A DNA stretch of 44,261 bases, taken from an uncultured Clostridia bacterium. GTDB lineage: Bacteria > Bacillota > Clostridia > Christensenellales > UBA1242. The stretch is from the NCBI GenBank assembly GCA_905235485.1, contig CAJOLY010000001.1, positions 1 through 44,261 of the forward strand, given 5' to 3'. Shown here one piece after another: positions 26,415-43,707 of the stretch (position 1 is its first letter; every line of letters starts with the position of its first letter). Under the pieces are notes generated by a model. The model saw nothing but the letters and a program-made list of their open reading frames with translations. It made no database searches and was not told where the DNA came from. Made by a program: the position numbers and the translations under genes.

Positions 26415-26499
26415 GGGTAGATGCCTGAGCGGCCAAAAGGAGCAGACTGTAAATCTGTCGGCGATGCCTACGGTGGTTCGAATCCATCTCTACCCACCA
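26415..26499 (+). tRNA. tRNA-Tyr(GTA), integration target
   Basis: 85 nt with long variable arm, CT-GTA-AA loop, CCA end. Confidence 0.95.
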
Positions 26500-26537
26500 A
26501 GTGTTGAAGTGAATTTTCACATCAGCACTTTTTTATT
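26482..26537 (+). repeat. attL, 56-bp direct repeat (tRNA-Tyr 3' end plus operon terminator)
   Basis: ATCCATCTCTACCCACCAAGTGTTGAAGTGAATTTTCACATCAGCACTTTTTTATT, identical at 43367-43422. Confidence 0.95.
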
Positions 26538-26653
26538 GATTTTGTAAAATATTTTATAAAAATTCTCAGTAAATACTTATTTTATTTGTTATATATTTAT
26601 AATTTTTATCCTGGTATAATTTTTAAGTTGATTTCATTAAAAAATGACTTTCT

Positions 26654-26697
26654 AGCAGATTTTCAGCAGATTTTAAGTACACAAATGAGTACACAAA
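26654..26697. repeat. Candidate integrase arm-type sites (left)
   Basis: AGCAGATTTT x2 then AGTACACAAA x2 at 11-12 bp spacing; related motifs at 43274-43306. Confidence 0.65.
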
Positions 26698-26698
26698 A

Positions 26699-27883
26699 CT
26701 ATTTTTTGATATTATTTATAATATCAACAAACTTATTATTTGTTTCTTTATTTAAATGAGTATAAATTTTTGTTGTGATAACACTTCCTTTTTCGTGGCC
26801 AACCCAACTTTGAACAACATATAGTGGGATATTGTTTTCTTGGCATCTTGTTATAAAAGTATGTCTTAAGTTATGTGTAGTAATTTTTCTTATGTTGCTT
26901 TCCTGAATAATTGTTTTGAGTTGCCTATCAACAGTGTTAATTCCAATATCAAATATATAATCATTATTTTTTTTGTTTTTGATCGATTCTTTTAAAACTT
27001 TTATTGATTTTTCAAACAGTGGCATTATTCTATTGCTTTGTGAATTTTTTGTGTCAGTTCTTTCTGTGTGAGGATTTAAACTTTCATCTACAGTTAAAGT
27101 TTTATTTTCAAAATCAATGTCTTTAACTTGTAAAGCTCTGCATTCTCCTTTTCGTAGTCCTTGATATAAGCAGATTAAGAAGAAGTTTCCATATTTGTTG
27201 TTTTTGCAAACTTCAATAAATTGTTGTTCTTCATAATTTGTCAATGCAATATTTTCTTTTGCTTTGTAAATTGGTTTTTCAACAAGTTTCATTATGTTTG
27301 TGTCAACAAGTTTGTTTAATAGTGCTTTTTCATACAGTGCATTGAGCAGAGTATAAGTCCTTAATCTTGAACTGTTTCCTGAAATATTATTTATAAGGTG
27401 TTGAACTTCAAATTGATTGATTTTTTTGATTGGTTTATTATAAAGTGATTGAGCATTTTTAAAATCAATATTCGTTGCTCTTATAGTTGTATCTTTAACA
27501 TTTTTTGATTTATACAAAGTTATAAACTTGTCAAACCATTCTTTGAGTGTTATATCACTTGATATTGAGTTGATATCTTCATTTTTAATTTTTTTGTATT
27601 TTTGAATAACATCTTTTTGTGTTTTTCCGTAAACTGTAATTTGTCGGCCATTTTTATAAAATCTAATTTGCCAACAATTTCTGTTTGGTGTTTTTGTAAT
27701 TTGTTTTCCATCGTATGTCAAAATTTCAATCTCCTTTGGTTTTAGATTTTCATTTTGACTTTGTGTATTATTTGAATTAAATTCTTTTTCGAATGTTTGA
27801 TTTGGTTGACCTTCCATAAGTCCTGCTAGAAATAGTGCTTCAATTTCAGCAAGCTGACATATTTCTTTTCCAAGTTCAAACAA
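26699..27883 (-). CDS. int: Tyrosine integrase (true start possibly ATG 27942 via a -1 frameshift)
   Basis: GLRKGE, HNLRHTF, VGH, TTKIYTH catalytic motifs; arm-binding-like N-terminus; adjacent to attL. Confidence 0.93.
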   Translation of the reverse strand: MFELGKEICQLAEIEALFLAGLMEGQPNQTFEKEFNSNNTQSQNENLKPKEIEILTYDGKQITKTPNRNCWQIRFYKNGRQITVYGKTQKDVIQKYKKIKNEDINSISSDITLKEWFDKFITLYKSKNVKDTTIRATNIDFKNAQSLYNKPIKKINQFEVQHLINNISGNSSRLRTYTLLNALYEKALLNKLVDTNIMKLVEKPIYKAKENIALTNYEEQQFIEVCKNNKYGNFFLICLYQGLRKGECRALQVKDIDFENKTLTVDESLNPHTERTDTKNSQSNRIMPLFEKSIKVLKESIKNKKNNDYIFDIGINTVDRQLKTIIQESNIRKITTHNLRHTFITRCQENNIPLYVVQSWVGHEKGSVITTKIYTHLNKETNNKFVDIINNIKK

Positions 27884-27949
27884 TTTTCTATGATTTTCAA
27901 TATGTTTTTGAATTATAGCTTTTTTTCATCAGTCATATTCATATTAAAA

Positions 27950-28756
27950 TTATTTTCTCCTTTTAATAAATTGACCTAATTTTCTTGGCATAATATCATT
28001 TATTCTTTTTATATCGTCCATTGTTAAATCAATTCTATTGTATTTGTTTTCATCATATAATTTAATTTTTGTCTCTTTTCTGTTATTATATTTTTCATTA
28101 TCTTCAATTCCCCAAAATTCAATATAAACATCTCCTTCTGGTAAATAAAAATCTGATAGTACAACAGCATTTGGTTCTGTGTCCATATAAACTGATTTTT
28201 CGTATGCATGAACATAATTGTTTCTGTATAGCCAATCATCGATTATTTTTTCTGCTTCAGATCTAACATAGTGTCCATCATCACATTGATGTTCTCTTGG
28301 CCATTTATTTCTAAAATCTTCATCATTAAATTTTTGACTTGTTTCAATATTTTTACTATTTTTCATTATTTCTAAAATATCTTTATTTGCGATTTTTGTT
28401 AAGTAGTCATCATCATAGATATTTTGGAATTCTTCAGATAAAGCAAACATAATGGAAATGTTATCTTTAATTTCTTCTAAATTGTTAGATTTCTTTGTAA
28501 GTTGTTTTAATTCAAAATAATGGTCTCTAATATTGTTTTCATTTCTATTGTGGTCAAAATTTTGTCTAATTGGTTTTATTTTATTTCTATAACAATCTAA
28601 ACAAAATAAATAATTATTATCTGTTTCTTCTTCACAAAGAATACACTTTTCATTTTTTATTTCGTTAGCATTATCATCTTTATTCTCATTTTCTATTTCT
28701 GTATTTTTATTGTTGTTATAATAATTTTTTTTATATCTATAATTCCAATATCCCAT
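27950..28756 (-). CDS. Zn-finger plus PD-(D/E)xK-like nuclease-fold protein
   Basis: CILC...CLDC; VRSEAEKIIDDWL...YEK...SDFYLP...YIEFWG; AAGGAG RBS. Confidence 0.6.
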   Translation of the reverse strand: MGYWNYRYKKNYYNNNKNTEIENENKDDNANEIKNEKCILCEEETDNNYLFCLDCYRNKIKPIRQNFDHNRNENNIRDHYFELKQLTKKSNNLEEIKDNISIMFALSEEFQNIYDDDYLTKIANKDILEIMKNSKNIETSQKFNDEDFRNKWPREHQCDDGHYVRSEAEKIIDDWLYRNNYVHAYEKSVYMDTEPNAVVLSDFYLPEGDVYIEFWGIEDNEKYNNRKETKIKLYDENKYNRIDLTMDDIKRINDIMPRKLGQFIKRRK

Positions 28757-28769
28757 ATATATTTCTCCT

Positions 28770-29084
28770 TTATTGTGCTAGAAGTAGTCCATCGCAGACA
28801 CTATCTAATTTGATTAAATTGCTATTGTTTAACAATGGCAATTTTTTTATTAGTTCTTTTGCAATAGATGAATAATAACTTATATCAATTTCATTTCTTT
28901 GATGATTGCATAAATAATCTAGCGATACATTATAGTAATCAGCAATTTGGCATAGAGTTTTAATATCTGGTTCACTTAATTTTTGTTCGTATGATGCATA
29001 AGTTGTTCTAGCAATATTTAAATATTTTGCTATTTCATTTTGCGTTGTTTTATTCTGTTTTCTCAGTTCAATTAGTTTTTCCAT
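28770..29084 (-). CDS. XRE/cI-like HTH repressor
   Basis: LIELRKQ..TQNEIAKYLNIARTTYASYE...IADYYNVSLDYL. Confidence 0.9.
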   Translation of the reverse strand: MEKLIELRKQNKTTQNEIAKYLNIARTTYASYEQKLSEPDIKTLCQIADYYNVSLDYLCNHQRNEIDISYYSSIAKELIKKLPLLNNSNLIKLDSVCDGLLLAQ

Positions 29085-29105
29085 AATTATTTTCTCCTTA
29101 AATTG

Positions 29106-29207
29106 ATATTATAATTATTTTTAAAAAATGTCAAAATTTTCGTAAAAATTGTTTGACAATGATTAAATATTAGTATATAATGCAAATATAAGACGAAAAT
29201 ATCGTCA
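29106..29207. promoter_or_regulatory. Divergent promoter/operator switch
   Basis: Plus strand TTGACA(29153)-17-TATAAT(29176); minus strand TTGACA(29134)-17-TAATAT; related operator-like sites GACGAAAATATCGTCA and (rc) TACGAAAATTTTGACA. Confidence 0.75.
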
Positions 29208-29344
29208 AAATAGATTATAAAAAAAGGAGAATAAAAAATGTTATCCTCGTAGGATAACATCAAACTAAATTATGTTAAATTGGAATGCATCAATTCATAT
29301 TTTGAGAATTGAAAATAATGTTATTAAATTTTATACAATACCAC

Positions 29345-29635
29345 TTACATTGCTAGAATTGCGTAAGGGTTAATAGTAACTTTTGGATTATATAAAAAAT
29401 AACTGTCTCTATGAATAGGATCTAAACTATGTAAATTTATTGGTTCTGGTGCATCTTTTAAATTTATAAATGATAATCCTATTGAATTAAAGTATAACCA
29501 AGTTAATTTATAGTCAAAATCTATGTCGTATAATTTATAGTTATTGATTATGTTTTGTTTTAAAAATATAATCCCTGAGTTAAAATCATTTTCAAATTCA
29601 GCAAATATTATTTTTGTTATTTCGTCGTATGACAT
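29345..29635 (-). CDS. Hypothetical protein (antisense-oriented cargo)
   Basis: 96 aa ORF with AAGGAG RBS. Confidence 0.6.
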   Translation of the reverse strand: MSYDEITKIIFAEFENDFNSGIIFLKQNIINNYKLYDIDFDYKLTWLYFNSIGLSFINLKDAPEPINLHSLDPIHRDSYFLYNPKVTINPYAILAM

Positions 29636-29755
29636 ACTAAATCTCCTTGTGTGGATTTTATACAGTTAATCGACTAACTGTCCTCCTTTAAAATTTAGTA
29701 TATCACAAAAGTAATAAAAAGTAAATTAAAGAAAATTAAAAAAGGGTGGTGCCTT

Positions 29756-29968
29756 ATGACTCAACAAAAAGAAACAAAGACAATTTGTTATTGTGTAACA
29801 ATATTTGATTATATGTTTCTTGCTGTAACAGAAAAGATGATGTTTTACACAATAGCAGAAGCTGAACAATGTTTTAAGGAACTTAAGTTTAAAAATTTAA
29901 GTGTCAGATTATCAGCTTTGGAAGTAACAAGCACAACAACAGTATCAGAGAAGATATTGAGTATGTAA
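29756..29968 (+). CDS. Hypothetical protein
   Basis: 70 aa; GGGTGG RBS-like sequence; in an operon with the next ORF. Confidence 0.55.
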   Translation: MTQQKETKTICYCVTIFDYMFLAVTEKMMFYTIAEAEQCFKELKFKNLSVRLSALEVTSTTTVSEKILSM

Positions 29969-29978
29969 TGGAGAGATT

Positions 29979-30227
29979 ATGTATAAAAGAAGTGATAAAT
30001 TATCCAAAAATCAAATGAATAGAAATTTTATTGATTTTTTAGGATTTAAGGATGTTCCTATAACTAAATTTAGAAAAAAGATTACTGAGAATGTTCCTTA
30101 TACGATTGAGTCAAGAGGAAGTCAATATTATAAAGGACATCAAAAGCGAACAAAAGTTTATGAAGTAGGAAAAATATATGATTATTTAGTTAGTGAAATT
30201 GAGAGAATTAAAAAAAACAAAGGTTAG
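29979..30227 (+). CDS. Small basic protein, possible excisionase/DNA-binding protein
   Basis: GGAG RBS; basic 82 aa ending KVYEVGKIYDYL, Xis-like by pattern only. Confidence 0.5.
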   Translation: MYKRSDKLSKNQMNRNFIDFLGFKDVPITKFRKKITENVPYTIESRGSQYYKGHQKRTKVYEVGKIYDYLVSEIERIKKNKG

Positions 30228-30502
30228 TCAATTCCTTTGTCCTCATCTTTTGAATCAAAAAAAATAAATTTATTGGTTTCATTAAGATATGACTCTCTTG
30301 CTTGTTTTGTTTTACATAGTTTAAGAGCCTCTTGAGAAGTCATAAAATTTAATCCAAGCTTAGCGCATTTTTCTTTGATTTTATCATAGTCAAGACCTTC
30401 ATATTCTGAAATATCTCCGATTAGATTGATAAAATCATCATCTCTTTTCATTTCTTCATCATAATTTTTTCTTAAAAATTTTGCGAATTCAATTTCATTC
30501 AT
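30224..30502 (-). CDS. Hypothetical protein (moron-like, own promoter)
   Basis: GAGGTG RBS before ATG 30502; minus-strand TTGACA(30550)-18-TAAAAT. Confidence 0.65.
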   Translation of the reverse strand: MNEIEFAKFLRKNYDEEMKRDDDFINLIGDISEYEGLDYDKIKEKCAKLGLNFMTSQEALKLCKTKQARESYLNETNKFIFFDSKDEDKGID

Positions 30503-30577
30503 TTTATTCACCTCAATAGTATTTTATATTTTTTGACTATTGAGTGTCAAGCAAAAAAAATATAAAGGAAAAACAAT

Positions 30578-31756
30578 ATGAACAAAGCATTAAAAATTAG
30601 TTTGATAACAATTATATCAATACTTATGGTTTTCAGTTTGCTTTCAATGGGATTATATTATTATCTCCCAGCTGTTGAGAGAAATGAAACATTTGCATTA
30701 TCAACTGACACAAATGGAAATCCATACATTGATGTCGAATATTGGTCAAACAAAGAAAATAACGGTGTTGAACTGTTAGACATTAGATTACATGGTTATG
30801 CAACAGCAGAAGATTTTGAAAAAGATGAACCAGTTACATATTATAAAGGTATTCAATTTGTTGGAGATAAACATGGTTCAATTGTTTTTGACTTTGACAC
30901 AGTATGGTCAATTAGTAATCCCTTTGGAGTAATATTTTCATCTTCGAATTATAAAACAGCTGCATATAAATCAAATGTAAAGGCATATTACTATGACTCA
31001 CAAAACAATATCAATTTTAAATCATTCAATGAATTAACAGATGAATATCGTTTTAAAGTTTCTGTTGAAAGTGGAGAAAATACAGGTTTGTATTTCTTAA
31101 AACTGTTGGGACAAAAAGTTGATTCAAGTGATACTTTTCTTTGGCATACTGATTATTATTGCACAAATTTTGATTTGATGTATTTATCAAACAAAATACT
31201 TGAAACAGCAAGAGCAAACAGTGAAGGAAATGATTACACAGGAACACTTTCTATTGATGTAGGCACAATGTTTGATTATATGAAATATTCAGAACATGCT
31301 AGTGAACAAAAATGGGCCTCAACAATAAACAAAGAAACAGGAAAGGTTGAAACTTTCTTGCAAGAGTTTGCACTTGTTAATTTCACAGTTCATAGTGATG
31401 GTGCAAAATTTGCTAGTGATAGTATGTTTGGAATTATTGCTGATAGTTCAGATTTTGAATATGTTAATCCAGATATTAAAAACACATATCTTTTGGGAAA
31501 ACAAGTTGTTGAACTTACTGAAAAGAATTTCACAATAGCTGAAACAAAACTTGACTTTACAAACAGAACTAAAACATTTTTAGATAATAACAATTTGAAT
31601 ATATCAATCTTGATTGATTTAGACAGTTTGAATATGCAAGACATTGAATATAACGGATTTTCTGAAACTGTTAAGACATATTCAAAAAGAATAACATCAA
31701 TCACATTAAAGCAAACAGTGAATGGCACAACAATATATAGTGAGGTGGAACTATGA
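30578..31756 (+). CDS. N-terminally anchored membrane protein (candidate structural protein)
   Basis: Basic N-terminus plus one TM helix, then a beta-rich-looking ectodomain; AAGGA RBS. Confidence 0.75.
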   Translation: MNKALKISLITIISILMVFSLLSMGLYYYLPAVERNETFALSTDTNGNPYIDVEYWSNKENNGVELLDIRLHGYATAEDFEKDEPVTYYKGIQFVGDKHGSIVFDFDTVWSISNPFGVIFSSSNYKTAAYKSNVKAYYYDSQNNINFKSFNELTDEYRFKVSVESGENTGLYFLKLLGQKVDSSDTFLWHTDYYCTNFDLMYLSNKILETARANSEGNDYTGTLSIDVGTMFDYMKYSEHASEQKWASTINKETGKVETFLQEFALVNFTVHSDGAKFASDSMFGIIADSSDFEYVNPDIKNTYLLGKQVVELTEKNFTIAETKLDFTNRTKTFLDNNNLNISILIDLDSLNMQDIEYNGFSETVKTYSKRITSITLKQTVNGTTIYSEVEL

Positions 31757-32412
31757 CAGAACTTTTAGGAATATTTGGAGATACAGTTTCAACACTTAAA
31801 ACAATAATAGCTTTGATGGTTGTTATTGGAATAATATTTCTTTTGATATATATCAAAGAAATGCGACCTGTTATATTGGTCATTCTAGGTGTTGTTATTC
31901 TTGCAGGTGGAATTGGTGCAACAGTGCAAAATGTGAAGTATTTCAATGCTAGCAACAAAACAATTGGAGAAGTTTTGAACAGTACACTTCACACAACACA
32001 TTTTGTTAAGCAAAATGAAAATGTTTTTGAACTTAACACATTAGGATTTAAACAAGTTGATGAAAACACATACATCACAGAATATCAAATTGCACAAGTT
32101 ACAAATCTTGATCTGAAAAATCAAAAATATACATTAAAAGTCAATGATTATAGATGTTTTTCAAATGTGCAAGACGGACAAAACAATTCAATGGAATCAA
32201 AGTTTACATACACATTCTATGACAATGACAAAGAAGAAATTTTGACAGATACATTAAGTATAACATTTGTGTTCAATGAAAAATCAACAACAATACTTCT
32301 TCAAACAAAAGGTGGAGAACAAGCAAAGGAATTATGGAAAGCATTTGAAAGAAAGAATGGAATGAATATCACATTTGATAACTCAACAATAGATGAAATA
32401 TATTTAGGATAA
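31753..32412 (+). CDS. Two-TM membrane protein (candidate structural/matrix protein)
   Basis: Two N-terminal hydrophobic helices; ATGA overlap with the upstream gene; GAGGTG RBS. Confidence 0.75.
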   Translation: MTELLGIFGDTVSTLKTIIALMVVIGIIFLLIYIKEMRPVILVILGVVILAGGIGATVQNVKYFNASNKTIGEVLNSTLHTTHFVKQNENVFELNTLGFKQVDENTYITEYQIAQVTNLDLKNQKYTLKVNDYRCFSNVQDGQNNSMESKFTYTFYDNDKEEILTDTLSITFVFNEKSTTILLQTKGGEQAKELWKAFERKNGMNITFDNSTIDEIYLG

Positions 32413-32414
32413 AA

Positions 32415-32974: not shown

Positions 32975-32981
32975 AAATTTT

Positions 32982-33160: not shown

Positions 33161-33325
33161 ATGGATGATATAAAAAGATATATGAGAGAACAGGAAAAGA
33201 TATATAAACAAAAGATTGCATTAGAAAAATCAATAATTGAATATAACAACAAGCGAAAATCTTTATTTAATGTAGCTTTAATTGAATTATTACATAAACC
33301 AAAACAAAAAGGAGAAAAAATATGA
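33161..33325 (+). CDS. Small basic helical protein not in the ORF track (54 aa)
   Basis: AAGAGGA RBS; MDDIKRYMREQEKIYKQKIALEKS... Confidence 0.55.
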   Translation: MDDIKRYMREQEKIYKQKIALEKSIIEYNNKRKSLFNVALIELLHKPKQKGEKI

Positions 33326-33435: not shown

Positions 33436-36249
33436 ATGGTAGTATTTAGAGCAATTTATAAAACGCTTGTGGCCTTAATTATAGTGGCAGTAATAGCTGC
33501 TGGAACTATCTTGGCTGTGCCACAATGGAGAGATCCAGCAATAGATTGGGTCGCAGAGCATTCAAAGTTATATCAAACAACAGTTGATAGTAACGATGAA
33601 TTAACAGAAGAAACTATAGCTCAATCAGAAGAGATTGAGATATTAACAGGAGAAAAAGCTGATTTAATAGCACAGTTAATTTTAGCAAATGATGACAAAG
33701 AATATATACAAGCATTGTATGATTTGCTAGCTAGTGAAAGAGCAGCAAAGGCACAACTTCAAGCAAGGCTTGAGGCTGAGATTGCTGAAAAAGAAAGTTT
33801 GCAAGAACAATTAGATTCAGCAAACACAAATATCGAAGTTGCAAGAGCTGTGCTTGATGAAAAAAATGCAAGTATTTCATTATTGCAATCAGAAATTGCG
33901 GAAAAGAATGCAACAATAGAAAGTTTAAATTCTAGTCTTGCAAGTAAAACTGCAGAGGCAGAGGAATATAAACAACAAGTTATTGCATTAGGTGGCGAAC
34001 TTGAAACATTGCAATCATTTAAATATGGTAAGTATGTTTGGAGTGAGGAAGTGCCAGATGGCACATTTGAAGATGTGTTTGTTGAAGTACAGAACAACGG
34101 AAAAGTTAAATTTTATTTCGATAGTGAAAATTTTGCGTTGTTTGATTATGTACAAAATGAAAACAGAATTACAGTAAATTTTGTTGAAGATAACGAAGTA
34201 CATCCAATTGAATTTGTATTGACAAGTAATGCAAGCTTTGAGAGTACTGACGAAGATACCCCAATGTCATTTGTATATTGTGATGAAACACTTGAAAGTG
34301 TACTTGAATCAAGACAAATATTGCAAGAAGAATTAAGAGGTGTTGAAAGTGATAAATCAGTTCTTGAATTAGAAGTTGAAAGTTTAAATTCTCAAGTTAC
34401 ATCACTTAATAGTCAATTAAGTGAAATTACTACTCAAAGAGATTCTTTGCAATCTGAATTAGCAACTGCAAATTCAAATATTTCAAGTCTTAATCAAGAA
34501 TTGTCTGTTGCAAATTCTAGCATTCAGACATTAACACAACAAGTTAATACTTTAAATACTGACAAAATTGCATTAACAAATTTAATTAGCACTTTAGAAG
34601 GCGAAAAATTAGGGCTAGAAACAAGGATATCAGAACTTGAATCTGAACTTGAAACGTTTGAACAATACACGTTAAGTATTGACCAAACAAACCCTGTTGA
34701 AACAATTATTATTACTGATAGCAAACTTAACACAGTTGCTTCTGTACAAGATGTGTCAATATCTCAAATTACATTGTATACTTGGCAAACTATTATTGTT
34801 AAGTATGCTAGCCAAAATAACAAAAACATTGTTGCAATGTTAAATGGAGTTAGTACTGGTTCTAACACTGTAACAATAAGTGGCGAAGGTAAACATACTT
34901 ATAGTATTACAAGTTTTGACGAGTATTTAAGTGATTTTAAATCAGATATTTCAAACGCTGGTGAAATTACGTTAACACACAATGTTGTGTTAGATACTGA
35001 AATTGAAATTACTGAAGATACAACTATTGATTTGAATGGTCACGCAATATACGGTGCAAATATCAATGGTGCAGTATTCAAAGTTATGCCGGGTGTAACA
35101 TTAACACTTTATGGTGATGGTAGTGTTGTTGGCGGTAGTGGTGCAGATTGTAGAGCTGTAGAAGTACAAGGTACACTTAATGTTTATGATGGTAATTATT
35201 TTGTAGGACCGGATGCTGACGGTTATGGTAATTCAACAATATATGCTTCAGCAAATAATGCAGTTGTAAATATTTATGGCGGACATTTTGAGTCCGCGGC
35301 TGCTTGGAATAACTTTTATTATGTACTTAATGTTAAAAATTCAGTTAATGCAACAGTTAATGTTTATGGTGGTGAGTTTGTAAATTACGACCCATCAGTT
35401 GGCGATGATAATCTAGGTGGTAATTTTGTTGCTGAAGGTTATGAAGTTATCCAAGATGGTGACTGTTATATTGTTGAAGAAATATATACAGAAATACAAA
35501 CAGTGTTAGAAGATGGAATATATCATATAAAAAATATTCCACAGGGTTCAGCAGATTTAAAAGATATAGTTTTTACAATCGAAAATGGCGAAATTAGTGA
35601 ATACAAATATGAGCTTGGAATATGGTTATCTGACAGTTCAATAGAAACTTTTACTCAGACAAGGGATGAAAACCTTATTGAGGTAACGTACACTGGTCAT
35701 GGTATTTTAAAAGGTAATTTTCACGTTGATATAATTGATGAAACTACATTTAATGCCTTTGGCTTTACATTTGCTTTAGATGGAACAGAAAAAGCAACAT
35801 CAATACTAGCATATTCATTTGGTAATGGATGGGTAGATTTATTTGAGGACGGAACGGGTGTTATTAGTTTTTCTGAAACAAACCTTTTTGGCTCATTTAA
35901 ATACACAATAGATGAAAATAACAGAATTGATGCTGTTTCTATTGATGGAAGTGAATTTACGTGCGTTTTGGATGCAGATTATGAATATGCTTCGTTTCTT
36001 GGTGTAAGATTCGGCAGAATATCGGAAAGTGCAATAGCAAGCCCAAGTGAACGAGCAGGTTTATATGTAAATAGCCAAGGAAACGGTGGTTTAGTTATCT
36101 ATTTAGATGGTAGTATTGGTATGTATGGTATGAGAAAATTTACAGCTGAAGAGATACCATATATTCAATGGGTGAACTATTTAACATTTGAATTTGATGG
36201 AAATTATTTTGTTAAATACAATGTATTTACACAACAAGTGTACCAATAA
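33436..36249 (+). CDS. Large membrane-anchored coiled-coil protein with beta-helix-like and beta-rich head domains (spike/adhesin candidate)
   Basis: N-terminal TM; two heptad coiled coils; TIDLNGH..VNIYGGHF..VNVYGGEF repeats; GAGGAG RBS. Confidence 0.8.
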   Translation: MVVFRAIYKTLVALIIVAVIAAGTILAVPQWRDPAIDWVAEHSKLYQTTVDSNDELTEETIAQSEEIEILTGEKADLIAQLILANDDKEYIQALYDLLASERAAKAQLQARLEAEIAEKESLQEQLDSANTNIEVARAVLDEKNASISLLQSEIAEKNATIESLNSSLASKTAEAEEYKQQVIALGGELETLQSFKYGKYVWSEEVPDGTFEDVFVEVQNNGKVKFYFDSENFALFDYVQNENRITVNFVEDNEVHPIEFVLTSNASFESTDEDTPMSFVYCDETLESVLESRQILQEELRGVESDKSVLELEVESLNSQVTSLNSQLSEITTQRDSLQSELATANSNISSLNQELSVANSSIQTLTQQVNTLNTDKIALTNLISTLEGEKLGLETRISELESELETFEQYTLSIDQTNPVETIIITDSKLNTVASVQDVSISQITLYTWQTIIVKYASQNNKNIVAMLNGVSTGSNTVTISGEGKHTYSITSFDEYLSDFKSDISNAGEITLTHNVVLDTEIEITEDTTIDLNGHAIYGANINGAVFKVMPGVTLTLYGDGSVVGGSGADCRAVEVQGTLNVYDGNYFVGPDADGYGNSTIYASANNAVVNIYGGHFESAAAWNNFYYVLNVKNSVNATVNVYGGEFVNYDPSVGDDNLGGNFVAEGYEVIQDGDCYIVEEIYTEIQTVLEDGIYHIKNIPQGSADLKDIVFTIENGEISEYKYELGIWLSDSSIETFTQTRDENLIEVTYTGHGILKGNFHVDIIDETTFNAFGFTFALDGTEKATSILAYSFGNGWVDLFEDGTGVISFSETNLFGSFKYTIDENNRIDAVSIDGSEFTCVLDADYEYASFLGVRFGRISESAIASPSERAGLYVNSQGNGGLVIYLDGSIGMYGMRKFTAEEIPYIQWVNYLTFEFDGNYFVKYNVFTQQVYQ

Positions 36250-36318: not shown

Positions 36319-38235
36319 ATGTCAAAATGGTTAAAAATTACAATTGCAATAATATTAACAGTTGCAATTTTAGGAATGTCAATTTGGTTCATTTTCTTCA
36401 GTGGAATTTTAGATAAAACAAAGAAGTATTCATATCAAGATATTCAAGATATGTATGATGCAGGTTTTGTTGATGGTTCAAAAAGGGTAACGGATTTGCA
36501 ATTGCAAATTGATGAGTTAAATGGTCAAATTGAATTAAATTACAATAGAATTACTGAGTTGCAAGATTTAGCAAGATCCTTATCAAGTGAAAATTCTAGA
36601 ATTCCAGGTCTTGAAACTGAAATTGAAAATTTGAGAGTTGAAAAAGCTGAGTTATTAGATCTTGTTAATAGATTACAAGCTGAGTTGGAAATATATTGTA
36701 ATGATTTACCAAATAGAGTTATTGTAACATTTTATAAAGATAATAATGTATATAAAGAGTTATCAATAAGAGAAAATGGCAGTGTTTTAGTTGAAGTTCC
36801 TACTCCAATAAAAGATGGATATCTGTTTAATGGTTGGTCCTTAAATAATGAAATAATTGATATTACAACATATTCTTTTACTCAAGATGAAAGACTTGAT
36901 GCTGTTTTTGTTATAGATGATACATTATCAAATATTTTATCTAATTTAAATCATGAAAATTATTTGCATTTTAAATTGTTAGATAATAGTATTGAAAGTT
37001 ATTTTTACTTTACAAATGATAATTTAGGGTTTTATTGTAACGGATATTTCTTTGATAATATAATATTCTTAAATAATAATAGTTTTATTGGAAATTGTGT
37101 GATAAATAATGATATTTTCGAATGTCATGGCAATTACAATAGAGAGAATAAGCAATTGCAAATTACACTTAATGATATAGATTATAATTACTATTATATT
37201 GGTATTGTTGAAGATATGCATGATGATTATTTAAGATATTTAACTGTTGAGCCATCGAGTTATTTAAGCAATATGATATTGCTTTCATATGATAATAATA
37301 ATTATTTCGGATATGAATATAAACCTTTTATAAGTTATTCTTTTGAAGATATTGATGTAAACGAAGTTAAAAAAATAATATTTACTCAAGGTGTTAAGTA
37401 TGTTTCAGTTGATTTTCTTGATAATTTTGTAAATTTGACAGAGATTGATTTTTATGGAACAGCAATGCAGTGGTTTGGTCAGCATACTTTAACGGGTAGA
37501 GAATTGATTGATAATTTTAAAATCAATAAGGACACATCATACATTGTGAATTGCATCGATGGATTATATGAAATAAACAATGAAAATAAAGTTATATTAA
37601 AATTTTATGCACCAGGTAAATTGGAAGGTTACAGTAATATAACATTTGAAAATTTACTATATTATGTTGGAATAATTGATAAGAATAATTTGTATTTAGA
37701 TGAAGTTAATGCTCCAAATAAACAAGGATATAATTTTGTTGGATGGAGTGATGGCCAGAATATTATTGATTTTTACACATATAGTTTTGATTCAAGTACA
37801 AATTTATATGCAGAATATGAACAAATACCAATGCCTGATGGAAAATATAGAATTAGTTGTGAAGAAGTTATAGAATATGGTGAAAATTCTTCAAGACTAA
37901 CAGGAAATGTAACTTTTATCGTTGAAAATGGCCAATATTCAATTGATAGTAGTGCAAATAATTATGTTGTAGTTGAAACTTTGTCAGGTAGAGGAATTTA
38001 TGTTGAGGGTACATATTCAAATTGTCGTTTTCAAATAAATTCAATAAATCAAGTTTCAAATTCATTAAGTATTAGTGCATCAGAAGTTGGTTTTAGCATT
38101 CAATTTTGTTATTGCACAGATGAAAGTACATTAAATACACGATATTTTAATGTTTCAAATAAAATTACAGACAATTGGTATTATACAAACATTTCTCATT
38201 CAAATGTAAATTTGGAAGTAATTGATTTGTATTAA
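36319..38235 (+). CDS. Membrane-anchored coiled-coil protein with two InlB-B (Flg_new) repeats (spike/adhesin candidate)
   Basis: N-terminal TM; coiled coil; PTPIKDGYLFNGWS and APNKQGYNFVGWS repeats. Confidence 0.8.
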   Translation: MSKWLKITIAIILTVAILGMSIWFIFFSGILDKTKKYSYQDIQDMYDAGFVDGSKRVTDLQLQIDELNGQIELNYNRITELQDLARSLSSENSRIPGLETEIENLRVEKAELLDLVNRLQAELEIYCNDLPNRVIVTFYKDNNVYKELSIRENGSVLVEVPTPIKDGYLFNGWSLNNEIIDITTYSFTQDERLDAVFVIDDTLSNILSNLNHENYLHFKLLDNSIESYFYFTNDNLGFYCNGYFFDNIIFLNNNSFIGNCVINNDIFECHGNYNRENKQLQITLNDIDYNYYYIGIVEDMHDDYLRYLTVEPSSYLSNMILLSYDNNNYFGYEYKPFISYSFEDIDVNEVKKIIFTQGVKYVSVDFLDNFVNLTEIDFYGTAMQWFGQHTLTGRELIDNFKINKDTSYIVNCIDGLYEINNENKVILKFYAPGKLEGYSNITFENLLYYVGIIDKNNLYLDEVNAPNKQGYNFVGWSDGQNIIDFYTYSFDSSTNLYAEYEQIPMPDGKYRISCEEVIEYGENSSRLTGNVTFIVENGQYSIDSSANNYVVVETLSGRGIYVEGTYSNCRFQINSINQVSNSLSISASEVGFSIQFCYCTDESTLNTRYFNVSNKITDNWYYTNISHSNVNLEVIDLY

Positions 38236-38350: not shown

Positions 38351-38650
38351 ATGGCAAAGAAGAATACTTGGGGAACAAAGGTAACAACACAAAAAGGTAA
38401 AAAAATTACACTTTTAAATCCACAAGAGAAAAGACAAAAATTTTTTCAGGAAAGATTGACAAATACTCATTTGACAAATGATATGATTTGCAAAACAGAC
38501 AAAGCAGGTAATTGTAAACCATTGACTGATACTGAAGCTGCATATAGAAGTGGATATGAAAGAGCAATTAAAGATCAAAACAGATTATATAGAGCAAAGC
38601 ATCCAAAATATGTATCAAAGTATCCTGAAAATATCAAAGCAAAAAACTAA
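38351..38650 (+). CDS. Basic hypothetical protein
   Basis: AAGGAG RBS; Lys/Arg-rich 99 aa. Confidence 0.75.
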   Translation: MAKKNTWGTKVTTQKGKKITLLNPQEKRQKFFQERLTNTHLTNDMICKTDKAGNCKPLTDTEAAYRSGYERAIKDQNRLYRAKHPKYVSKYPENIKAKN

Positions 38651-38835: not shown

Positions 38836-39057
38836 ATGTGTTGTATAAGTAAAAAAGTAAAAGAAAAGGCTTTAAAAACTAGTCAAAAGCAATTAAAAGA
38901 AGAATATATGGCCAGTGAAGAAAAGCTGAAGTTTTATCATTTTACTGCACAAAAGAAATTATTGAATGATGAATTAAAAAAACATAGAGTGCTTGAAAAA
39001 GCAATGATGTATCAGCATACAAAAAGATATGCAAAAAAGATTAAGGGAGCGACATAA
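38836..39057 (+). CDS. Basic hypothetical protein (73 aa)
   Basis: GGAG RBS before ATG 38836. Confidence 0.6.
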   Translation: MCCISKKVKEKALKTSQKQLKEEYMASEEKLKFYHFTAQKKLLNDELKKHRVLEKAMMYQHTKRYAKKIKGAT

Positions 39058-39287
39058 TGGCTTATAAACCTTATTCAAGAGAACAGAAACAAGAATATGC
39101 AAAGAAATTTAGTGATATAGAGCGAAAAGCATATCTTGCCGGGAAAAGACAAGGATTTTTAGAGGGAGTTCATAAACCACCTTTAAAAAAGAAATCAGAG
39201 TTTATATCACATGATTATTTAGGTATAGACTTAAATAAAGAACTTTTTGATGATATAGACAAAGTCGATATTTTTAAAAGAAGATAA
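39057..39287 (+). CDS. Basic hypothetical protein
   Basis: GGGAG RBS; TAATG overlap; AYLAGKRQGF motif. Confidence 0.7.
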   Translation: MAYKPYSREQKQEYAKKFSDIERKAYLAGKRQGFLEGVHKPPLKKKSEFISHDYLGIDLNKELFDDIDKVDIFKRR

Positions 39288-39436
39288 TTTATTACAATTA
39301 AATAATAGTATAAGTCTAGGCAAAGTGACCTAGCACGCAATGTCTTACTTTAAGAGATAAACAAAAAAGGTTGCGACATCGCAACCATAATTAAAAAATA
39401 ATAAAAAATTTAAAAAGGAAAATAAGGAGAAAAAAG

Positions 39437-39820
39437 ATGGAAAATAAGGATAAAGTAGAAGTAAAAGAAGTTAAAGAAAATAAAGAAGCTGTAGTAAAAA
39501 AAGAAATTGTTATAAGTGAAAGAGAAAAAGAACTTGGAAGTCATATAACAAAAGTTAGATTTTTGGGTGCTCAAGTTGTACCGAACACATTTAATAGATA
39601 TTATCGAGTATTTGTTATTCAACTCACACAATATAGAGATACACATAATAGTGGATTTTCAATGCTTGAACATCAAATTCCAAAGGATGCAGTGCCAGAT
39701 GTATTTATTCCATTTGGAAGTGAAGTTGACGCAGTATATTTGAATGTGCCAGAGGGTCAAAAACCGGTATTTTTAAGATTTGAGGGGTTAGAAAAGTTCA
39801 GAAAATTGGAAGATAAATAA
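39437..39820 (+). CDS. Putative single-stranded DNA-binding protein (OB-fold, pV-like)
   Basis: Size, beta-strand pattern, ..PFGSEVDAVY.. and position upstream of ATPase/Rep; assignment is inference. Confidence 0.5.
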   Translation: MENKDKVEVKEVKENKEAVVKKEIVISEREKELGSHITKVRFLGAQVVPNTFNRYYRVFVIQLTQYRDTHNSGFSMLEHQIPKDAVPDVFIPFGSEVDAVYLNVPEGQKPVFLRFEGLEKFRKLEDK

Positions 39821-39902
39821 TATAATCAATTTGCTGAATAGTAACAAAAGGGTTGTTGGCTATTTAGCTGACTTCCTTTTTTGATACGTATAGGAGAGAA
39901 AA

Positions 39903-40760
39903 ATGGCAACATCACATATATTTTTTGGAGAACAGAGAAGTGGAAAGACATTATATTTAGCATATCTTGCAAATATACAAGCATATGATCCTGTTAAACT
40001 TTCGGCTTGCTATAATAAAATAGATATGCTTAATTCAATGGGATACAACTTGTCAAAACCAAAACATATAACATTTACTGATTTTGATTTAGAAATACAT
40101 TCATATAGAAAAGCTGTTGAAATGAATTATTGGATAGATGGATTTTATTTAGGATTGCCGCATTATGTTGTAAAGAATAAAAAACTTACATATAGAACAA
40201 TGTTTTTGCCTCCAAATATAAACATTTATTTAGATGAAGGCAACAAATATTTTGATAGTAGAAATCGAGATATTATGCCAGATTATCGTAAAAGATGGAA
40301 TGAACTTCTGGGCCAGTGGGGAACAGAACTGTATATGGTATGTCATAGACCAATGCTTGTAGACTCTTGCATAAGAGATTTATCGGACTTCAGAGAGTTT
40401 TTAAAAACTGACTTAGATTATGACTATTTTGGCAATATTAGCAAAGCAATAATTCATACAAGGTATTATCCTACAAGTAAAGATGCAATGGCTTATATAG
40501 ACAATGGAATAATCACTGAAAATGTAACTGAGGAAGATATAGTTATTGATTGTACAAGGCCATTTCTTAATGTTCCCAAGTATTATGATACACATTTTTA
40601 TGATAAAGCCTTTTTGCGTTTTGCAGAAGATCGAGATTTTGATCTTATACAAAAAAAGCACATTTGTAACTCAGTTGAAGATGTACAAGCATTTAATAAA
40701 AGATTTCATTATACAGTACCTCAAGGGTTATACGAAAAAGGAGTTGAAGATGACAGATAA
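39903..40760 (+). CDS. Zot/pI-like (FtsK-HerA clade) ATPase without TM segment
   Basis: Walker A GEQRSGKT at the extreme N-terminus, Walker B IYLDEG, MVCHRP, VDSCIR. Confidence 0.8.
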   Translation: MATSHIFFGEQRSGKTLYLAYLANIQAYDPVKLSACYNKIDMLNSMGYNLSKPKHITFTDFDLEIHSYRKAVEMNYWIDGFYLGLPHYVVKNKKLTYRTMFLPPNINIYLDEGNKYFDSRNRDIMPDYRKRWNELLGQWGTELYMVCHRPMLVDSCIRDLSDFREFLKTDLDYDYFGNISKAIIHTRYYPTSKDAMAYIDNGIITENVTEEDIVIDCTRPFLNVPKYYDTHFYDKAFLRFAEDRDFDLIQKKHICNSVEDVQAFNKRFHYTVPQGLYEKGVEDDR

Positions 40761-41214
40761 AACAGATAATAAAGAGTTAGTAGCAGTAGGTGATTTATTA
40801 CCAGCAATTGCTAATCAATCAAAACAAATAGAACAAATAAAAGAGATACTAAACAATTTGCAAAAAGATAATAAAAATACATATATGGAATCAATGGATA
40901 TAATGCCACTAGATTTTCGAAAGTTGGATGGTTTTTTTGCATTACAACAAGCATATTATAACATTTTTGCAAAGAATCAAGCATCTCTTGAACTTGTTCC
41001 GTTTGAGATAATACAAAAAGCTGATAACTGGGCCACAAAAATGTTTAAGAAAGATTTGGATAAACAAATAAACAAAGGATATAAGAAACTTATAAAAAAG
41101 GAAAAAAAGGAGAAACGTCAAATGAAATTCAAAGAATTTATAAAAAAGCTATTTAAACCATTTAAGAGAAAAGCAAAAAAAGACACAAACTTACAACCGA
41201 GGCAGGCAGATTAA
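40750..41214 (+). CDS. Hypothetical coiled-coil protein with Lys-rich C-terminus (154 aa)
   Basis: AAGGAG RBS before ATG 40750, overlapping the ATPase stop. Confidence 0.7.
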   Translation: MTDKTDNKELVAVGDLLPAIANQSKQIEQIKEILNNLQKDNKNTYMESMDIMPLDFRKLDGFFALQQAYYNIFAKNQASLELVPFEIIQKADNWATKMFKKDLDKQINKGYKKLIKKEKKEKRQMKFKEFIKKLFKPFKRKAKKDTNLQPRQAD

Positions 41215-41446
41215 GCGAAGGCGCTGCCTGCCGTGATGAGATAATAAATAAACTTATACTACCACAAAAGCTAAAAAGAGACGTGCAGTAGGTCATCAAT
41301 AAGGCGCACAAAATTTGTACTATCTCTAATGTCCATTTTAAAAAAAACTTGTACTATCTCAATGTATATTTTGTGTAGTATGTAACTTTAAAATAGATAC
41401 AAAAGAAAGGGCCTTGAAAAGGCAATTTCTTCTGTATCTATACTAA
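41201..41446. other. Candidate rolling-circle origin region
   Basis: GC hairpin 41201-41232, direct repeat TTGTACTATCTC (41315, 41349), long hairpin 41394-41440 directly upstream of rep. Confidence 0.55.
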
Positions 41447-41491
41447 CGGAATATTTGACAGTAAAAAAATTTTAAAAAAAGGAGAAATAAA

Positions 41492-42532
41492 ATGTCTTGG
41501 ATCGGTATAAAACAACGTAATCCACAAAGAAAATTTGTAGCTATGAAGTTAAGAACAGCTATGGATGATTTATTGAACCAAGATATTAAAGGTTTAGATA
41601 GAATTGATAAAATTTATCACAAAGTTGATGGTTGTATGAGTTATGTTAATATGCAGAAATGTATCCAGTGTGGTATGTTACATTTTAATAAATCAAATTA
41701 TTGTGAAAGTAAACTTTGTCCTATATGTGCTTATTTAAGAGCTAGAAAATATTTATCAGTTCTAGTACCAAGATTTAGAAATATGCTTGAAAGAGGATAT
41801 AAAATAAACTTTTTAACTTTGACAATAAAAGATACAGCAGTTTTGAAATATGGATTGGACATTGTTAAAAAAGCCTGGAGATACATGACAAATAGAGATC
41901 CATTTTCAAAATATATTTTCAAAAATATGTTTATTGGTGGAATCTATGCTATAGAAATTAAAAAAGGAAAGAATTCAAAACTCTGGCATCCACATGTTCA
42001 TTTGTTAGTAGTCAAAGACCATTTTTCAAAAGATTTTGATGTTATCAAAGGATTATGGGAAATGGCATGTCAAAAAGTTGCAAACACAACAGAAAAGATA
42101 TCATCAGTAGATATTCGAGGTGTTCATGACAAAAATGGCAAATTAACAAAGAATATAAACAGTGAAGATACAATAACAAGTGCAGTAGTTGAATGTGTTA
42201 AGTATGTAACAAAATTTTCATTTGATGATTATTCATCAATGGATTTGCTTGAATTATGTAATTGCTTATATAACAATAGATTATTTTCAACATTTGGATG
42301 TATGAGAAACAGTGAAGATGAAGATCTTGATGAAGATTACAAAGACGTAGTAGAGGAATTAGTTTGTACAAAATGTGGCAGTAGAGATTTTGAAGATGAA
42401 GTTACATCAATAGATAAAGCAATGAATATGAACGTAGTCGATTTTGGAAAAAGACATTATGTTTCAAAGAAAGAACAAATTGCAGGATTAACAGCAATTA
42501 TGGAAGTAATGCTTAGGAGAGAATATGAATAA
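41492..42532 (+). CDS. rep: HUH rolling-circle replication initiator (Rep_1/pC194-like)
   Basis: Motif I FLTLT, motif II WHPHVHLLV, motif III ECVKYVTK, N-terminal Cys cluster ..CESKLCPIC. Confidence 0.93.
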   Translation: MSWIGIKQRNPQRKFVAMKLRTAMDDLLNQDIKGLDRIDKIYHKVDGCMSYVNMQKCIQCGMLHFNKSNYCESKLCPICAYLRARKYLSVLVPRFRNMLERGYKINFLTLTIKDTAVLKYGLDIVKKAWRYMTNRDPFSKYIFKNMFIGGIYAIEIKKGKNSKLWHPHVHLLVVKDHFSKDFDVIKGLWEMACQKVANTTEKISSVDIRGVHDKNGKLTKNINSEDTITSAVVECVKYVTKFSFDDYSSMDLLELCNCLYNNRLFSTFGCMRNSEDEDLDEDYKDVVEELVCTKCGSRDFEDEVTSIDKAMNMNVVDFGKRHYVSKKEQIAGLTAIMEVMLRREYE

Positions 42533-43208
42533 CGAGAGTAAAAGTAAATTAAGATACATATTTGAAGATAATAAAATAACATATTTAGTTGAAAAGACAA
42601 ATTTATCATTTGAACAGCACGAAAAATATTTTTTAGATTTCTATTATGATTTATGGAAACTGAAAAAACAGTGTGAAACTCTTACAATTGACAATGATAA
42701 CGCAATATTTGAATATTTAGCAGAAAATGATAAGGGTGAAGTAGTTGAAAGAAAAAAGAAATTTTCATTTAATACAATGATAAAGCATTTATTCAATGTA
42801 GACAAAACTCAACTTTCAAGGGGATTTAATGTTCTTAAAAGATTTAGTGATTTTTCTGAAAGTGATATTCAAAAGCAAACTGTAACAATAAAGCCAGAAT
42901 ATGAAAACTTTAGTTATTCAAAACTTATGGAACTTCTTCCCTATAAAGAAGAATATGTTGTGAAAATGATAGATGATGGAAAAATACTGGCGGAGCAGTC
43001 AGTTAGAGATCTGAGAAAAGTATTACAAGATAAGCCTGAGACAATTCCATATATTCCTGAACCTTTTGAACTTGACAGAAACAAAGAATATCAAATGCAA
43101 GATTTTAGGAATTATGGCCGTAATGACCTGATATCAATATCTTATCAATGTTATCAAAGTTATTTAAGATTAAAAAAACAATTATTATTAAATAAAGTTA
43201 ATAAATAA
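42525..43208 (+). CDS. Hypothetical protein (possible DNA-binding)
   Basis: AGGAG RBS; coupled to rep; FSYSKLMELL...SVRDLRK helical motif. Confidence 0.7.
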   Translation: MNNESKSKLRYIFEDNKITYLVEKTNLSFEQHEKYFLDFYYDLWKLKKQCETLTIDNDNAIFEYLAENDKGEVVERKKKFSFNTMIKHLFNVDKTQLSRGFNVLKRFSDFSESDIQKQTVTIKPEYENFSYSKLMELLPYKEEYVVKMIDDGKILAEQSVRDLRKVLQDKPETIPYIPEPFELDRNKEYQMQDFRNYGRNDLISISYQCYQSYLRLKKQLLLNKVNK

Positions 43209-43225
43209 TAAAGTTATATATTTGC

Positions 43226-43257
43226 AAAAAAAATAGCGAGTAAATCGCTATTTTTTT
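43226..43257. terminator. Bidirectional intrinsic terminator
   Basis: A8-TAGCGA-gtaaa-TCGCTA-T7. Confidence 0.8.
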
Positions 43258-43273
43258 ATATGAGTTAATTTTG

Positions 43274-43306
43274 AGCAGAATTTGAGTATCAAAATAAGTA
43301 CACAAA
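43274..43306. repeat. Candidate integrase arm-type sites (right)
   Basis: AGCAGAATTT, AGTATCAAAA, AGTACACAAA matching the left-end motifs. Confidence 0.6.
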
Positions 43307-43366
43307 AAGTCAAAATGAATGATTTTTGTCAGTAATTACTGACTTTTTTAAAATTTCCTTTTGGGC

Positions 43367-43422
43367 ATCCATCTCTACCCACCAAGTGTTGAAGTGAATT
43401 TTCACATCAGCACTTTTTTATT
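43367..43422 (+). repeat. attR, 56-bp direct repeat
   Basis: Identical to 26482-26537. Confidence 0.95.
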
Positions 43423-43706: not shown

Positions 43707-43707
43707 A

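Follow-up and report, generated by a model that had tools for sequence, protein, structure and literature searches.

The locus described here raises the question of what kind of mobile element carries the replication and export genes of a filamentous phage together with no recognisable coat gene. It lies in the 44,261-nt contig CAJOLY010000001.1 (assembly GCA_905235485.1) of an uncultured Clostridia bacterium of the order Christensenellales (UBA1242); this whole stretch of DNA is called the window hereafter. The host is a member of the small-genome gut Clostridia (genome 981 kb, 96.7% complete). An earlier note, made from the sequence letters without database searches, had described a complete temperate provirus-like element with exact att repeats, a tyrosine integrase, a cI-like switch, an HUH Rep, an open reading frame (ORF) resembling a single-stranded DNA-binding protein (SSB), a Zot/pI-like ATPase and four membrane-anchored proteins. 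It had regarded the element as a candidate new virus group, either with membrane-based particles or as a highly divergent relative of the inoviruses, above the usual size of filamentous phages. Our results showed that the element is real and looks complete, and its gene content inclines us, on balance, to regard it as a divergent, cargo-enlarged, temperate inovirus-like (Tubulavirales-like) element of gut Clostridia that would be exported without lysis.

A repeat search over a 19-kb stretch revealed one long direct repeat of 67 nt at 94% identity, the first 56 nt of which are identical, with the two copies spaced 16,885 bp apart exactly as previously described. No other repeat within that stretch is comparable, the next-longest families being one of 79 nt at 78% identity, shared by two flanking helix-turn-helix (HTH) genes, and others of at most 38 nt at 72–83%. 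The left copy starts 18 nt before the end of the tRNA-Tyr gene, which ARAGORN places last in a six-tRNA array (Pro-Met-Asp-Phe-Thr-Tyr), and then runs through an imperfect hairpin and a T-run that we read, from the sequence, as the terminator of the tRNA operon. Repeats of this kind are what a tyrosine recombinase usually leaves when it integrates an element at the 3′ end of a tRNA gene and so restores that end of the tRNA. Between the repeats, 22 called ORFs cover 88% of the element, the GC content of which is 0.276 versus 0.31 in the left flank (Table 1). The integrase scored 92.7 bits against the Phage_integrase cut-off of 27.1 and contains HNLRH (the HxLRH box) at position 337 and a tyrosine near its C-terminus. 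The gene of the cI-like HTH_3 repressor (4e-15) diverges from small ORFs on the plus strand, of which those of 70 and 82 aa appear to occupy the position of early or cro-like genes.

The same tRNA array was found in a congener, G328 (97% complete), with 72% identity over 2 kb. There, tRNA-Tyr is followed by a hairpin of its own, and no element DNA was found in the 1.5 kb after tRNA-Tyr and no match to the ATPase of the element in the whole genome. G328 was considered as a clean empty site (attB) and rejected, as its right flank differs from that of the window. When the right flank (828 bp) was used to look for an empty site in 60 other genomes of the family, matches came from 31 of them and were confined to short pieces of HTH genes. 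Just beyond attR, at 43494–43920 (−), lie the two adjoining paralogous HTH genes (81 and 70 aa) that share the 79-nt repeat, and the contig ends 340 bp past this pair. No DNA near-identical to the element was present in phage records. Among sequencing runs, a single DNA run contained the sequence, in the form of contigs, and is probably its source; no RNA data set containing it was listed.

Protein families were sought in 20 ORFs with Pfam and PHROGs at E ≤ 0.01. The ORFs at 30224–30511 (−) and 33161–33325 (+) lay outside this set, and the latter was covered among 33 small ORFs scanned against PHROGs and Pfam at E ≤ 0.05; an NCBIfam scan gave coiled-coil noise only. The stand-alone ATPase carries a Walker A motif (GEQRSGKT) and a Walker B motif (LDEGNK). 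In a family alignment of 24 members including the window protein, 20 of the 24 matched Pfam Zot at E ≤ 0.1, the best at 1.3e-9. The family profile matched PDB 2r2a (E 8.4e-12; the chain is listed as 'Uncharacterized protein'), which we take to be the N-terminal domain of a Neisseria Zot-like protein, and the pI of Clostridium phage CAK1 (E 3.2e-7). When the window ATPase itself was used in tblastn, one phage record was matched, bajarodino virus 12 (PQ006185.1; 24% identity, E 8e-10), in a gene named 'Zonula occludens toxin'. Another family member, L032, is 45.8% identical to that Zot and matched 42 phage records, including Ralstonia RSS-type and Pseudomonas filamentous phages. At the level of profiles, the window ATPase thus belongs to the Zot/pI family, as the earlier note had proposed. 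A word-indexed search of 5.8 billion proteins yielded 14 clusters of the ATPase at 46–100% identity, and of 300 other genomes sampled within the order of the host, 26 had profile matches, among them 5 of the 13 in its family.

The Rep scored 86.5 bits against the Rep_1 (PF01446) cut-off of 33.2 and contains HPHVH at 166–170, Tyr238 within YVTK and two CxxC pairs; the calls of integrase, cI-like repressor and HUH Rep were all borne out. The Rep matched eight phage records, all of them inoviruses or so labelled, namely six porcine 'Inovirus sp.' records, CAK1 and Pseudomonas phage PMBT54; in phmmer, the CAK1 Rep and the window Rep matched at 1.3e-8.

Structure models were built for two proteins, the 392-aa membrane protein and the 127-aa protein that had been called SSB-like. 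The latter is rare, with five matches at E ≤ 1e-3 among 1.84 billion representatives. Its model, based on a 10-sequence alignment (predicted local distance difference test score, pLDDT, 76.9), is a five-stranded barrel. The best Z in VIA-align was 7.3, which is below 8 and lies in a range that may reflect a mere common arrangement, and SSB or PriB occupied 18 of the 50 rows listed. Foldseek returned nothing at E ≤ 1e-3, its top rows being the RecO OB domain and PriB, and Atlas gave the weak leads Putative_G5P (0.80) and CTX_RstB (0.78). The model and the VIA-align rows are consistent with an oligonucleotide/oligosaccharide-binding (OB) fold. Judging from the model, it is plausible that the protein has an OB fold and binds single-stranded DNA. 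A link to the 115-aa candidate gpV of the relatives was tried and was not supported.

Around this candidate lie further small, charged proteins. The 99-aa basic family (cluster c6) conserves the motif TLLNP.EK ... LT..E.AYR.GY across six loci including the window, and no match to it was found in phage records or in any family library; for the 392-aa protein, likewise, there was none in phage records. The true start of the 95-aa ORF is probably internal, because its relatives are about 70 aa long. The lysine-rich 154-aa protein is weakly alignable to a lysine-rich protein of 78–133 aa found 3′ of the ATPase in nine related loci.

Relatives were compared over up to 20 kb around the ATPase at 20 places in related genomes and in two further loci, L003 (a contig of 8.9 kb with the title 'uncultured Clostridia bacterium') and L004 (from a metagenome), and their ORFs were clustered. 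The genome-contig collection yielded one locus (L003) and the metagenome contigs two (L004 and L005). Both L003 and L004 keep the order of the 99-, 95-, 76- and 127-aa proteins, the ATPase, the 154-aa protein, Rep and the 227-aa protein, at 41–74% identity. In L004, homologues of the 392-/219-aa pair lie directly upstream of this block. In the window, three small ORFs and the 937- and 638-aa genes stand between the membrane pair and the conserved block, and L003 shows the same order as the window, with a 937-like gene, then a 638-like gene, then the 99-aa protein. In L004, the 937-like gene and a homologue of the 268-aa nuclease-like gene come after the 227-aa gene. These arrangements suggest a core of about 8–9 kb to which exchangeable surface-protein and defence cargo would be added, which would account for the large size of the window element; at 16,885 bp, it is the largest of the seven measured (relatives 8.1–14.9 kb). 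The integration module also appears to have been exchanged within the subfamily of the window: at 17009–17998 (+), L004, the integrated relative closest to the window element, carries an rve-type DDE integrase (PF00665, E 6e-17) in place of the tyrosine integrase, and it is not located at a tRNA gene.

The common layout of the wider family comprises an integrase with an HTH repressor, one or more anchored proteins, the c3 protein, the ATPase, the lysine-rich protein, often a 70-aa basic protein (in five related loci and the window) and Rep. The c3 protein, found in 13 loci before the ATPase, is 450–650 aa long and has a signal peptide and, at its C-terminus, between one and three membrane segments. 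The one or two further membrane proteins of the relatives have either an N-terminal anchor or a signal peptide with a C-terminal anchor, often with Flg_new repeats. The Rep of L043 and L044 is of the inovirus G2P type (PF23343, 3.4e-11 and 2.2e-12), in contrast to the Rep_1 of the window, and L045 encodes a canonical SSB (PF00436, 7.8e-31). In bajarodino virus 12, the gene that directly precedes Zot is a homologue of the c3 of L044 (E 1e-64), and this virus therefore belongs to the same group. In IMG/VR, no close relatives were found with the ATPase, with the 937-aa protein or with the subfamily ATPase alignment, and one 5.4-kb contig was found with the 24-member alignment.

Two of the related loci showed features of their own. 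L045, a distant relative of 8.7 kb in a genome from another family of the order, is bounded at 4655–4801 and 13317–13461 by repeats of 96 and 55 nt that duplicate the whole tRNA-Tyr and part of tRNA-Thr. One contig (G225:C4, 151537–175789; L026 and L043) has three matches to the ATPase family in about 25 kb, and L026 comprises two tandem elements, each with an integrase, HTH, Rep, adhesin-like protein and ATPase; from its gene content, this stretch looks like an array of inovirus-like prophages.

Table 1. Features of the window element and its integration site, with the att-repeat spacing of related elements.
Feature	Position or spacing	Strand	Remarks
tRNA-Tyr (GTA)	26415..26499	+	Integration target; ARAGORN
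attL	26482..26537		Exact 56-bp repeat; similarity on to 26548 (67-nt copy 26482-26548); last 18 nt of tRNA-Tyr, operon hairpin and T-run
Tyrosine integrase, 394 aa	26699..27883	-	PF00589 3e-26; phrog_1 8.3e-61
CxxC + PD-(D/E)xK-type protein, 268 aa	27950..28756	-	PADLOC PDC-S69 1.5e-37; HEAT_CxxC_PD-DEXK 2.7e-11
HTH_3 (XRE/cI-type) repressor, 104 aa	28770..29084	-	Pfam 4e-15; phrog_8 6.1e-19
96-aa ORF of lysogeny-side operon	29345..29635	-	No Pfam/PHROGs family
Two small ORFs, 70 and 82 aa	29756..30227	+	Divergent from repressor; no Pfam/PHROGs family
95-aa ORF	30224..30511	-	PADLOC scan only: weak pAgo row, E 0.00024
Core membrane protein, 392 aa	30578..31756	+	N-terminal anchor, beta-rich ectodomain
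219-aa protein	31753..32412	+	N-terminal two-helix hairpin; start overlaps stop of 392-aa gene
Three small soluble ORFs, 81, 71 and 54 aa	32521..33325	+	No family
937-aa surface protein	33436..36249	+	N-terminal anchor, coiled coil (~280-430), beta-helix-like region; accessory, variable
638-aa surface protein	36319..38235	+	N-terminal anchor, coiled coil, Listeria-Bacteroides (Flg_new) repeats; PF09479 1.2e-10
99-aa basic protein (23 K+R)	38351..38650	+	Family in 5 related loci (6 with window)
Small basic protein, ORF 95 aa	38770..39057	+	Family in 5 related loci (6 with window)
76-aa charged protein	39057..39287	+	Conserved in L003 and L004
127-aa candidate ssDNA-binding (gpV-like) protein	39437..39820	+	Predicted five-stranded barrel
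Stand-alone Zot/pI-family P-loop ATPase, 285 aa	39903..40760	+	No membrane segment
154-aa lysine-rich protein	40750..41214	+	Overlaps ATPase stop
Rep_1-family HUH rolling-circle initiator, 346 aa	41492..42532	+	N-terminal zinc ribbon; Pfam 2.7e-24
227-aa protein	42525..43208	+	No family; always downstream of Rep in window subfamily
attR	43367..43422		Second 56-bp repeat copy; similarity on to 43433 (67-nt copy 43367-43433)
L044 att repeats	8,131 bp		tRNA-Leu
L045 att repeats	8,662 bp		tRNA-Tyr, same six-tRNA array as window
L038 att repeats	11,383 bp		tRNA-Met
L041 att repeats	12,756 bp		tRNA-Pro
L036 att repeats	12,921 bp		tRNA-Glu
L004 repeat	14,910 bp		26-nt exact repeat, without tRNA

The remaining large genes encode membrane proteins. 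A Kyte–Doolittle scan, which is a crude measure of hydropathy, located N-terminal hydrophobic anchors in four proteins, those of 392, 219 (two helices), 937 and 638 aa, the number that had been counted before. The 392-aa protein has nine homologue clusters, one of them labelled 'Christensenellales bacterium' by its source, and homologues in L004, L034 and L035. Its model (pLDDT 64) matched nothing at E ≤ 1e-3 in Foldseek against PDB and BFVD, with a best VIA Z of 3.7, and speaks neither for nor against a capsid or spike fold. The 219-aa protein has longer homologues of 418 and 494 aa in L004 and L034. For the 937-aa protein, Atlas matched Pectate_lyase_5/Beta_helix at a score of 0.85, which is a lead only, and the 937-like protein of L004 has a DUF285 head and differs from the window in its position. 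When the window membrane proteins were compared with the c3, c11 and c13 proteins of the relatives profile to profile, only the Flg_new repeats were shared, apart from one weak 63-column match (E 0.0017). No homologues of the 81-, 71- and 54-aa ORFs were found among the loci of the relatives. On the lysogeny side, the 268-aa nuclease-like gene adjoining the integrase looks like candidate anti-phage defence cargo.

What the element appears to lack had also been listed in the earlier note, and that list was confirmed. Among the 20 ORFs, no family for HK97, terminase, portal, tail, jelly-roll, holin, lysin, VirB4 or relaxase was found (Pfam and PHROGs), and none for a coupling protein, a type IV secretion system (T4SS) or an FtsK-type translocase (Pfam); the scans of the 20 ORFs and the 33 small ORFs revealed no lysis gene. 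According to the excerpts of PMC6813254 (Roux et al. 2019), a pI-like morphogenesis ATPase is the sole universal inovirus marker, and inovirus structural proteins are 30–90 aa long with one or two membrane segments. The absence of a coat candidate holds even by these inovirus standards, and the intergenic gaps of the element are too short for a hidden small coat ORF. A small membrane coat ORF was likewise found neither in the complete 8.1-kb L044 nor among the annotated genes of PQ006185.1. Elsewhere in the family, a 52-aa membrane ORF (56% identical) occurs upstream of the membrane-protein block in L034 (6825–6983, −) and L035 (5247–5405, +). It is weakly similar to the membrane region at the C-terminus of c3 and is possibly a small structural protein in part of the family; no counterpart was found in the window.

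To place the element, it was set beside known systems. The gut Clostridiales inoviruses (Clade-1, Ino-01 to Ino-06) resemble it, as far as the excerpts of PMC8530359 go, in a stand-alone ATPase, tRNA integration by a tyrosine recombinase, low GC and a gut Clostridia host. Those excerpts describe a human-gut inovirus clade with predicted Clostridiales hosts, genomes of 5.6–9.4 kb and 27–41% GC, in which every Firmicutes-targeted representative has Zot as a stand-alone domain and one member (Ino-06), which was aligned to a tRNA locus, encodes a tyrosine recombinase. In these phages, again going by the excerpts, and in CAK1, a pI/Zot ATPase of about 260–285 aa is followed by a second small or medium protein, as in the window. 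Unlike the gut Clostridiales inoviruses, which have a coat protein and the smaller genomes given in the excerpts, the window element is 16.9 kb long, has no coat candidate and has only large, N-anchored membrane proteins; the genomes of PMC8530359 were, by the same excerpts, chosen for a recognisable inovirus major coat protein. CAK1 (OX639564.1) has a homologous Rep and a stand-alone pI of 256 aa. Unlike the window, it also encodes an 88-aa coat protein, small membrane proteins resembling pVI and pVII, and a protein of 456 aa whose annotation as a putative receptor-binding protein comes from remote homology to f1 G3P.

Bajarodino virus 12 is a circular 9.8-kb faecal genome deposited as Inoviridae, and no publication on 'bajarodino' was found. 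It shares with the window the ATPase family, an integrase with a repressor, an N-anchored 344-aa protein and the lack of an annotated small membrane ORF. It differs in having, directly upstream of the ATPase, a large c3 with a signal peptide and a C-terminal multi-span region, whereas the window has no c3, and in its GC content (45% versus 28%); Rep is absent from its annotation. In this record, the 344-aa protein (6991–8025) is labelled 'major tail protein', which looks like a mis-annotation, and 1.5 kb (1979–3532) is without a long ORF.

Classical Inoviridae (Ff, Pf, RSS1 and CTX-type) share the core of a rolling-circle Rep, an ssDNA-binding protein (a candidate here) and a pI ATPase, and also integration in temperate members and non-lytic release, the latter being predicted for the window element. 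Their pI has a membrane segment and a C-terminal domain, whereas the window ATPase has no membrane segment, and their coat proteins of 30–90 aa, diderm hosts and secretin set them apart from the window. Classical inovirus genomes are mostly smaller than 10 kb. In view of the stand-alone-Zot gut Clostridiales inoviruses described in the excerpts of PMC8530359 and of PQ006185.1, already filed as Inoviridae, the words 'candidate new virus group' in the earlier note are overstated. The subfamily may already be catalogued in the supplementary tables of PMC6813254 or the genome deposit of PMC8530359; a literature search on Christensenellales inoviruses and filamentous phages gave no title on this group among the matches listed.

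The ATPase, Rep, OB-like protein and size (16.9 kb against 8.1–14.9 kb in relatives) favour the other suggestion made earlier, that of a highly divergent inovirus relative larger than typical. Several points weigh against reading the element as inovirus-like. Taken by itself, the window ATPase has no Pfam match (Zot PF05707, none at E ≤ 0.1), and it is just 21–31% identical to 21 more distant family members; the OB-fold call depends on the Z below 8 given above. Among non-overlapping ORFs below 200 aa, a doubtful one of 58 aa in the lysogeny operon is the only one with a hydrophobic 19-mer that exceeds 1.6 in Kyte–Doolittle hydropathy; apart from it, hydrophobic segments in non-overlapping ORFs occur only at the N-termini of the four large proteins. 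None of the 33 small plus-strand ORFs, overlapping ones included, matched a coat family (PHROGs/Pfam, E ≤ 0.05). The membrane proteins are N-terminally anchored, unlike pIII-type proteins, and 16.9 kb is about twice the size of the compact relatives. Excision, ssDNA and particles are deduced from the genes. Among the defining inovirus features that were looked for, the small coat protein is the one for which the sequence offers no candidate; the element is therefore not filed as a member of Inoviridae, and it appears instead to be a relative that shares the inovirus replication and export core.

On the reading as an inovirus-like element, loss of repression would allow the integrase to excise a 16.9-kb circle, which Rep would nick to drive rolling-circle synthesis of single strands. 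The single strands would be coated by the OB-like 127-aa protein, perhaps together with the small basic proteins. Tethered to the membrane by the 392-aa, 219-aa and adjacent 154-aa proteins, the soluble ATPase would then power non-lytic export and particle assembly. The 937- and 638-aa proteins, each with an anchor, a coiled-coil stalk and a beta-helix or Flg_new head, would serve as accessory, exchangeable surface or receptor-binding modules, and the 268-aa nuclease-like gene would be defence cargo. Most of the extra size would come from the genes between the core membrane pair and the replication/export block. By default, we assume the particle to be a filament with an unrecognised coat protein.

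The failure to find a coat gene could also mean that the element is not an autonomous virus. It might be a rolling-circle plasmid that integrates, or a mobilisable island, in which an export ATPase of inovirus type has been retained; or its coat genes may have been lost, leaving a remnant that is defective or depends on a helper. Rep_1 is a classic plasmid Rep family, the defence-type nuclease and adhesin-like proteins resemble cargo, and IMG/VR is nearly empty of relatives, with the single 5.4-kb contig. However, the genes are all intact and the block order is kept in L003 and L004, at 47–71% protein identity, which argues for selection on the whole set. The 20 ORFs include no relaxase, coupling protein or T4SS family (Rep_1 is no more than distantly related to some relaxases), and the 72,556 plasmids of PLSDB contain neither a match to the ATPase nor near-identical DNA. 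Moreover, a small coat ORF is equally lacking in PQ006185.1, a complete circular faecal genome deposited as a virus. On this evidence, we consider a non-autonomous element unlikely.

The same lack of a small membrane coat candidate in the element, in L044 and among the annotated genes of PQ006185.1, together with four anchored proteins, two of them of stalk-and-head form, and three to four conserved, very basic small proteins, could point to a non-filamentous virus. Such a virus would have taken its Zot-like ATPase and Rep from inovirus-like ancestors and would form a pleomorphic, membrane-derived particle of anchored and basic proteins, analogous to plasmaviruses and pleolipoviruses. Plasmavirus L2 and the alphapleolipovirus HRPV-1 do share elements of the layout, by analogy only: an integrase (L2), Rep with an NTPase (HRPV-1), membrane proteins and no icosahedral capsid gene. 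Compared at the sequence level with phmmer, the 14 L2 proteins matched only integrases of the relatives and no window ORF at E ≤ 0.1, and for the nine HRPV-1 proteins the sole row, with E 0.025, was at chance level and fell outside the element; neither L2 proteins nor HRPV-1 VP8 were matched by the ATPase profile. The L2 annotation has DnaA-box origins and no Rep, whereas the window has a Rep. The host genome contains three transpeptidase-domain (penicillin-binding protein) matches and four Mur-ligase matches, and the host therefore has a murein wall, which budding would have to cross; L2 and HRPV-1 live in hosts without one. Every recognisable gene points to inoviruses, L034 and L035 do carry the small conserved 52-aa membrane ORF, and coat proteins are short and fast-evolving and thus easily missed. 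The membrane-based particle suggested in the earlier note thus finds little to sustain it, and a non-filamentous virus is, in our judgement, decidedly improbable.

We attach an equally slight chance to a related proposal, that the lineage of the window element, L003 and L004, perhaps with the c3 group including bajarodino virus 12, dispenses with a small helical coat protein and has its DNA packaged or exported by the large anchored and small basic proteins. If true, this would imply either a non-filamentous, membrane-associated particle or capsid-less export through a Gram-positive wall, and a new inovirus-derived virion architecture.

That the 16.9 kb is not one functional unit but a composite of two nested elements, as the different placement of the 937-aa and nuclease homologues in L004 and the separation of the membrane pair from the export/replication block by three small ORFs and two large surface genes might suggest, is very hard to credit given the single integrase, single Rep and single pair of long repeats, the lack of internal att-like repeats above 38 nt, the 937-like, 638-like and 99-aa order kept in L003 and the similar GC of the modules (0.23–0.33).

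Filamentous phages of Gram-positive gut anaerobes are almost unstudied, and about 9% of the genomes sampled within one order carry relatives of the ATPase. How such a phage, with a pI ATPase that is soluble and no secretin, would assemble a filament and get it through a thick wall is a question that this element raises. In this gene set, the export ATPase is always flanked by large anchored and small basic proteins, which makes these proteins candidates for the missing assembly and coat functions, and the group could serve to test whether all elements with a Zot gene do make filaments. Both the nuclease of defence type and the variable surface proteins with stalk and head may represent lysogenic-conversion cargo in small-genome gut bacteria.

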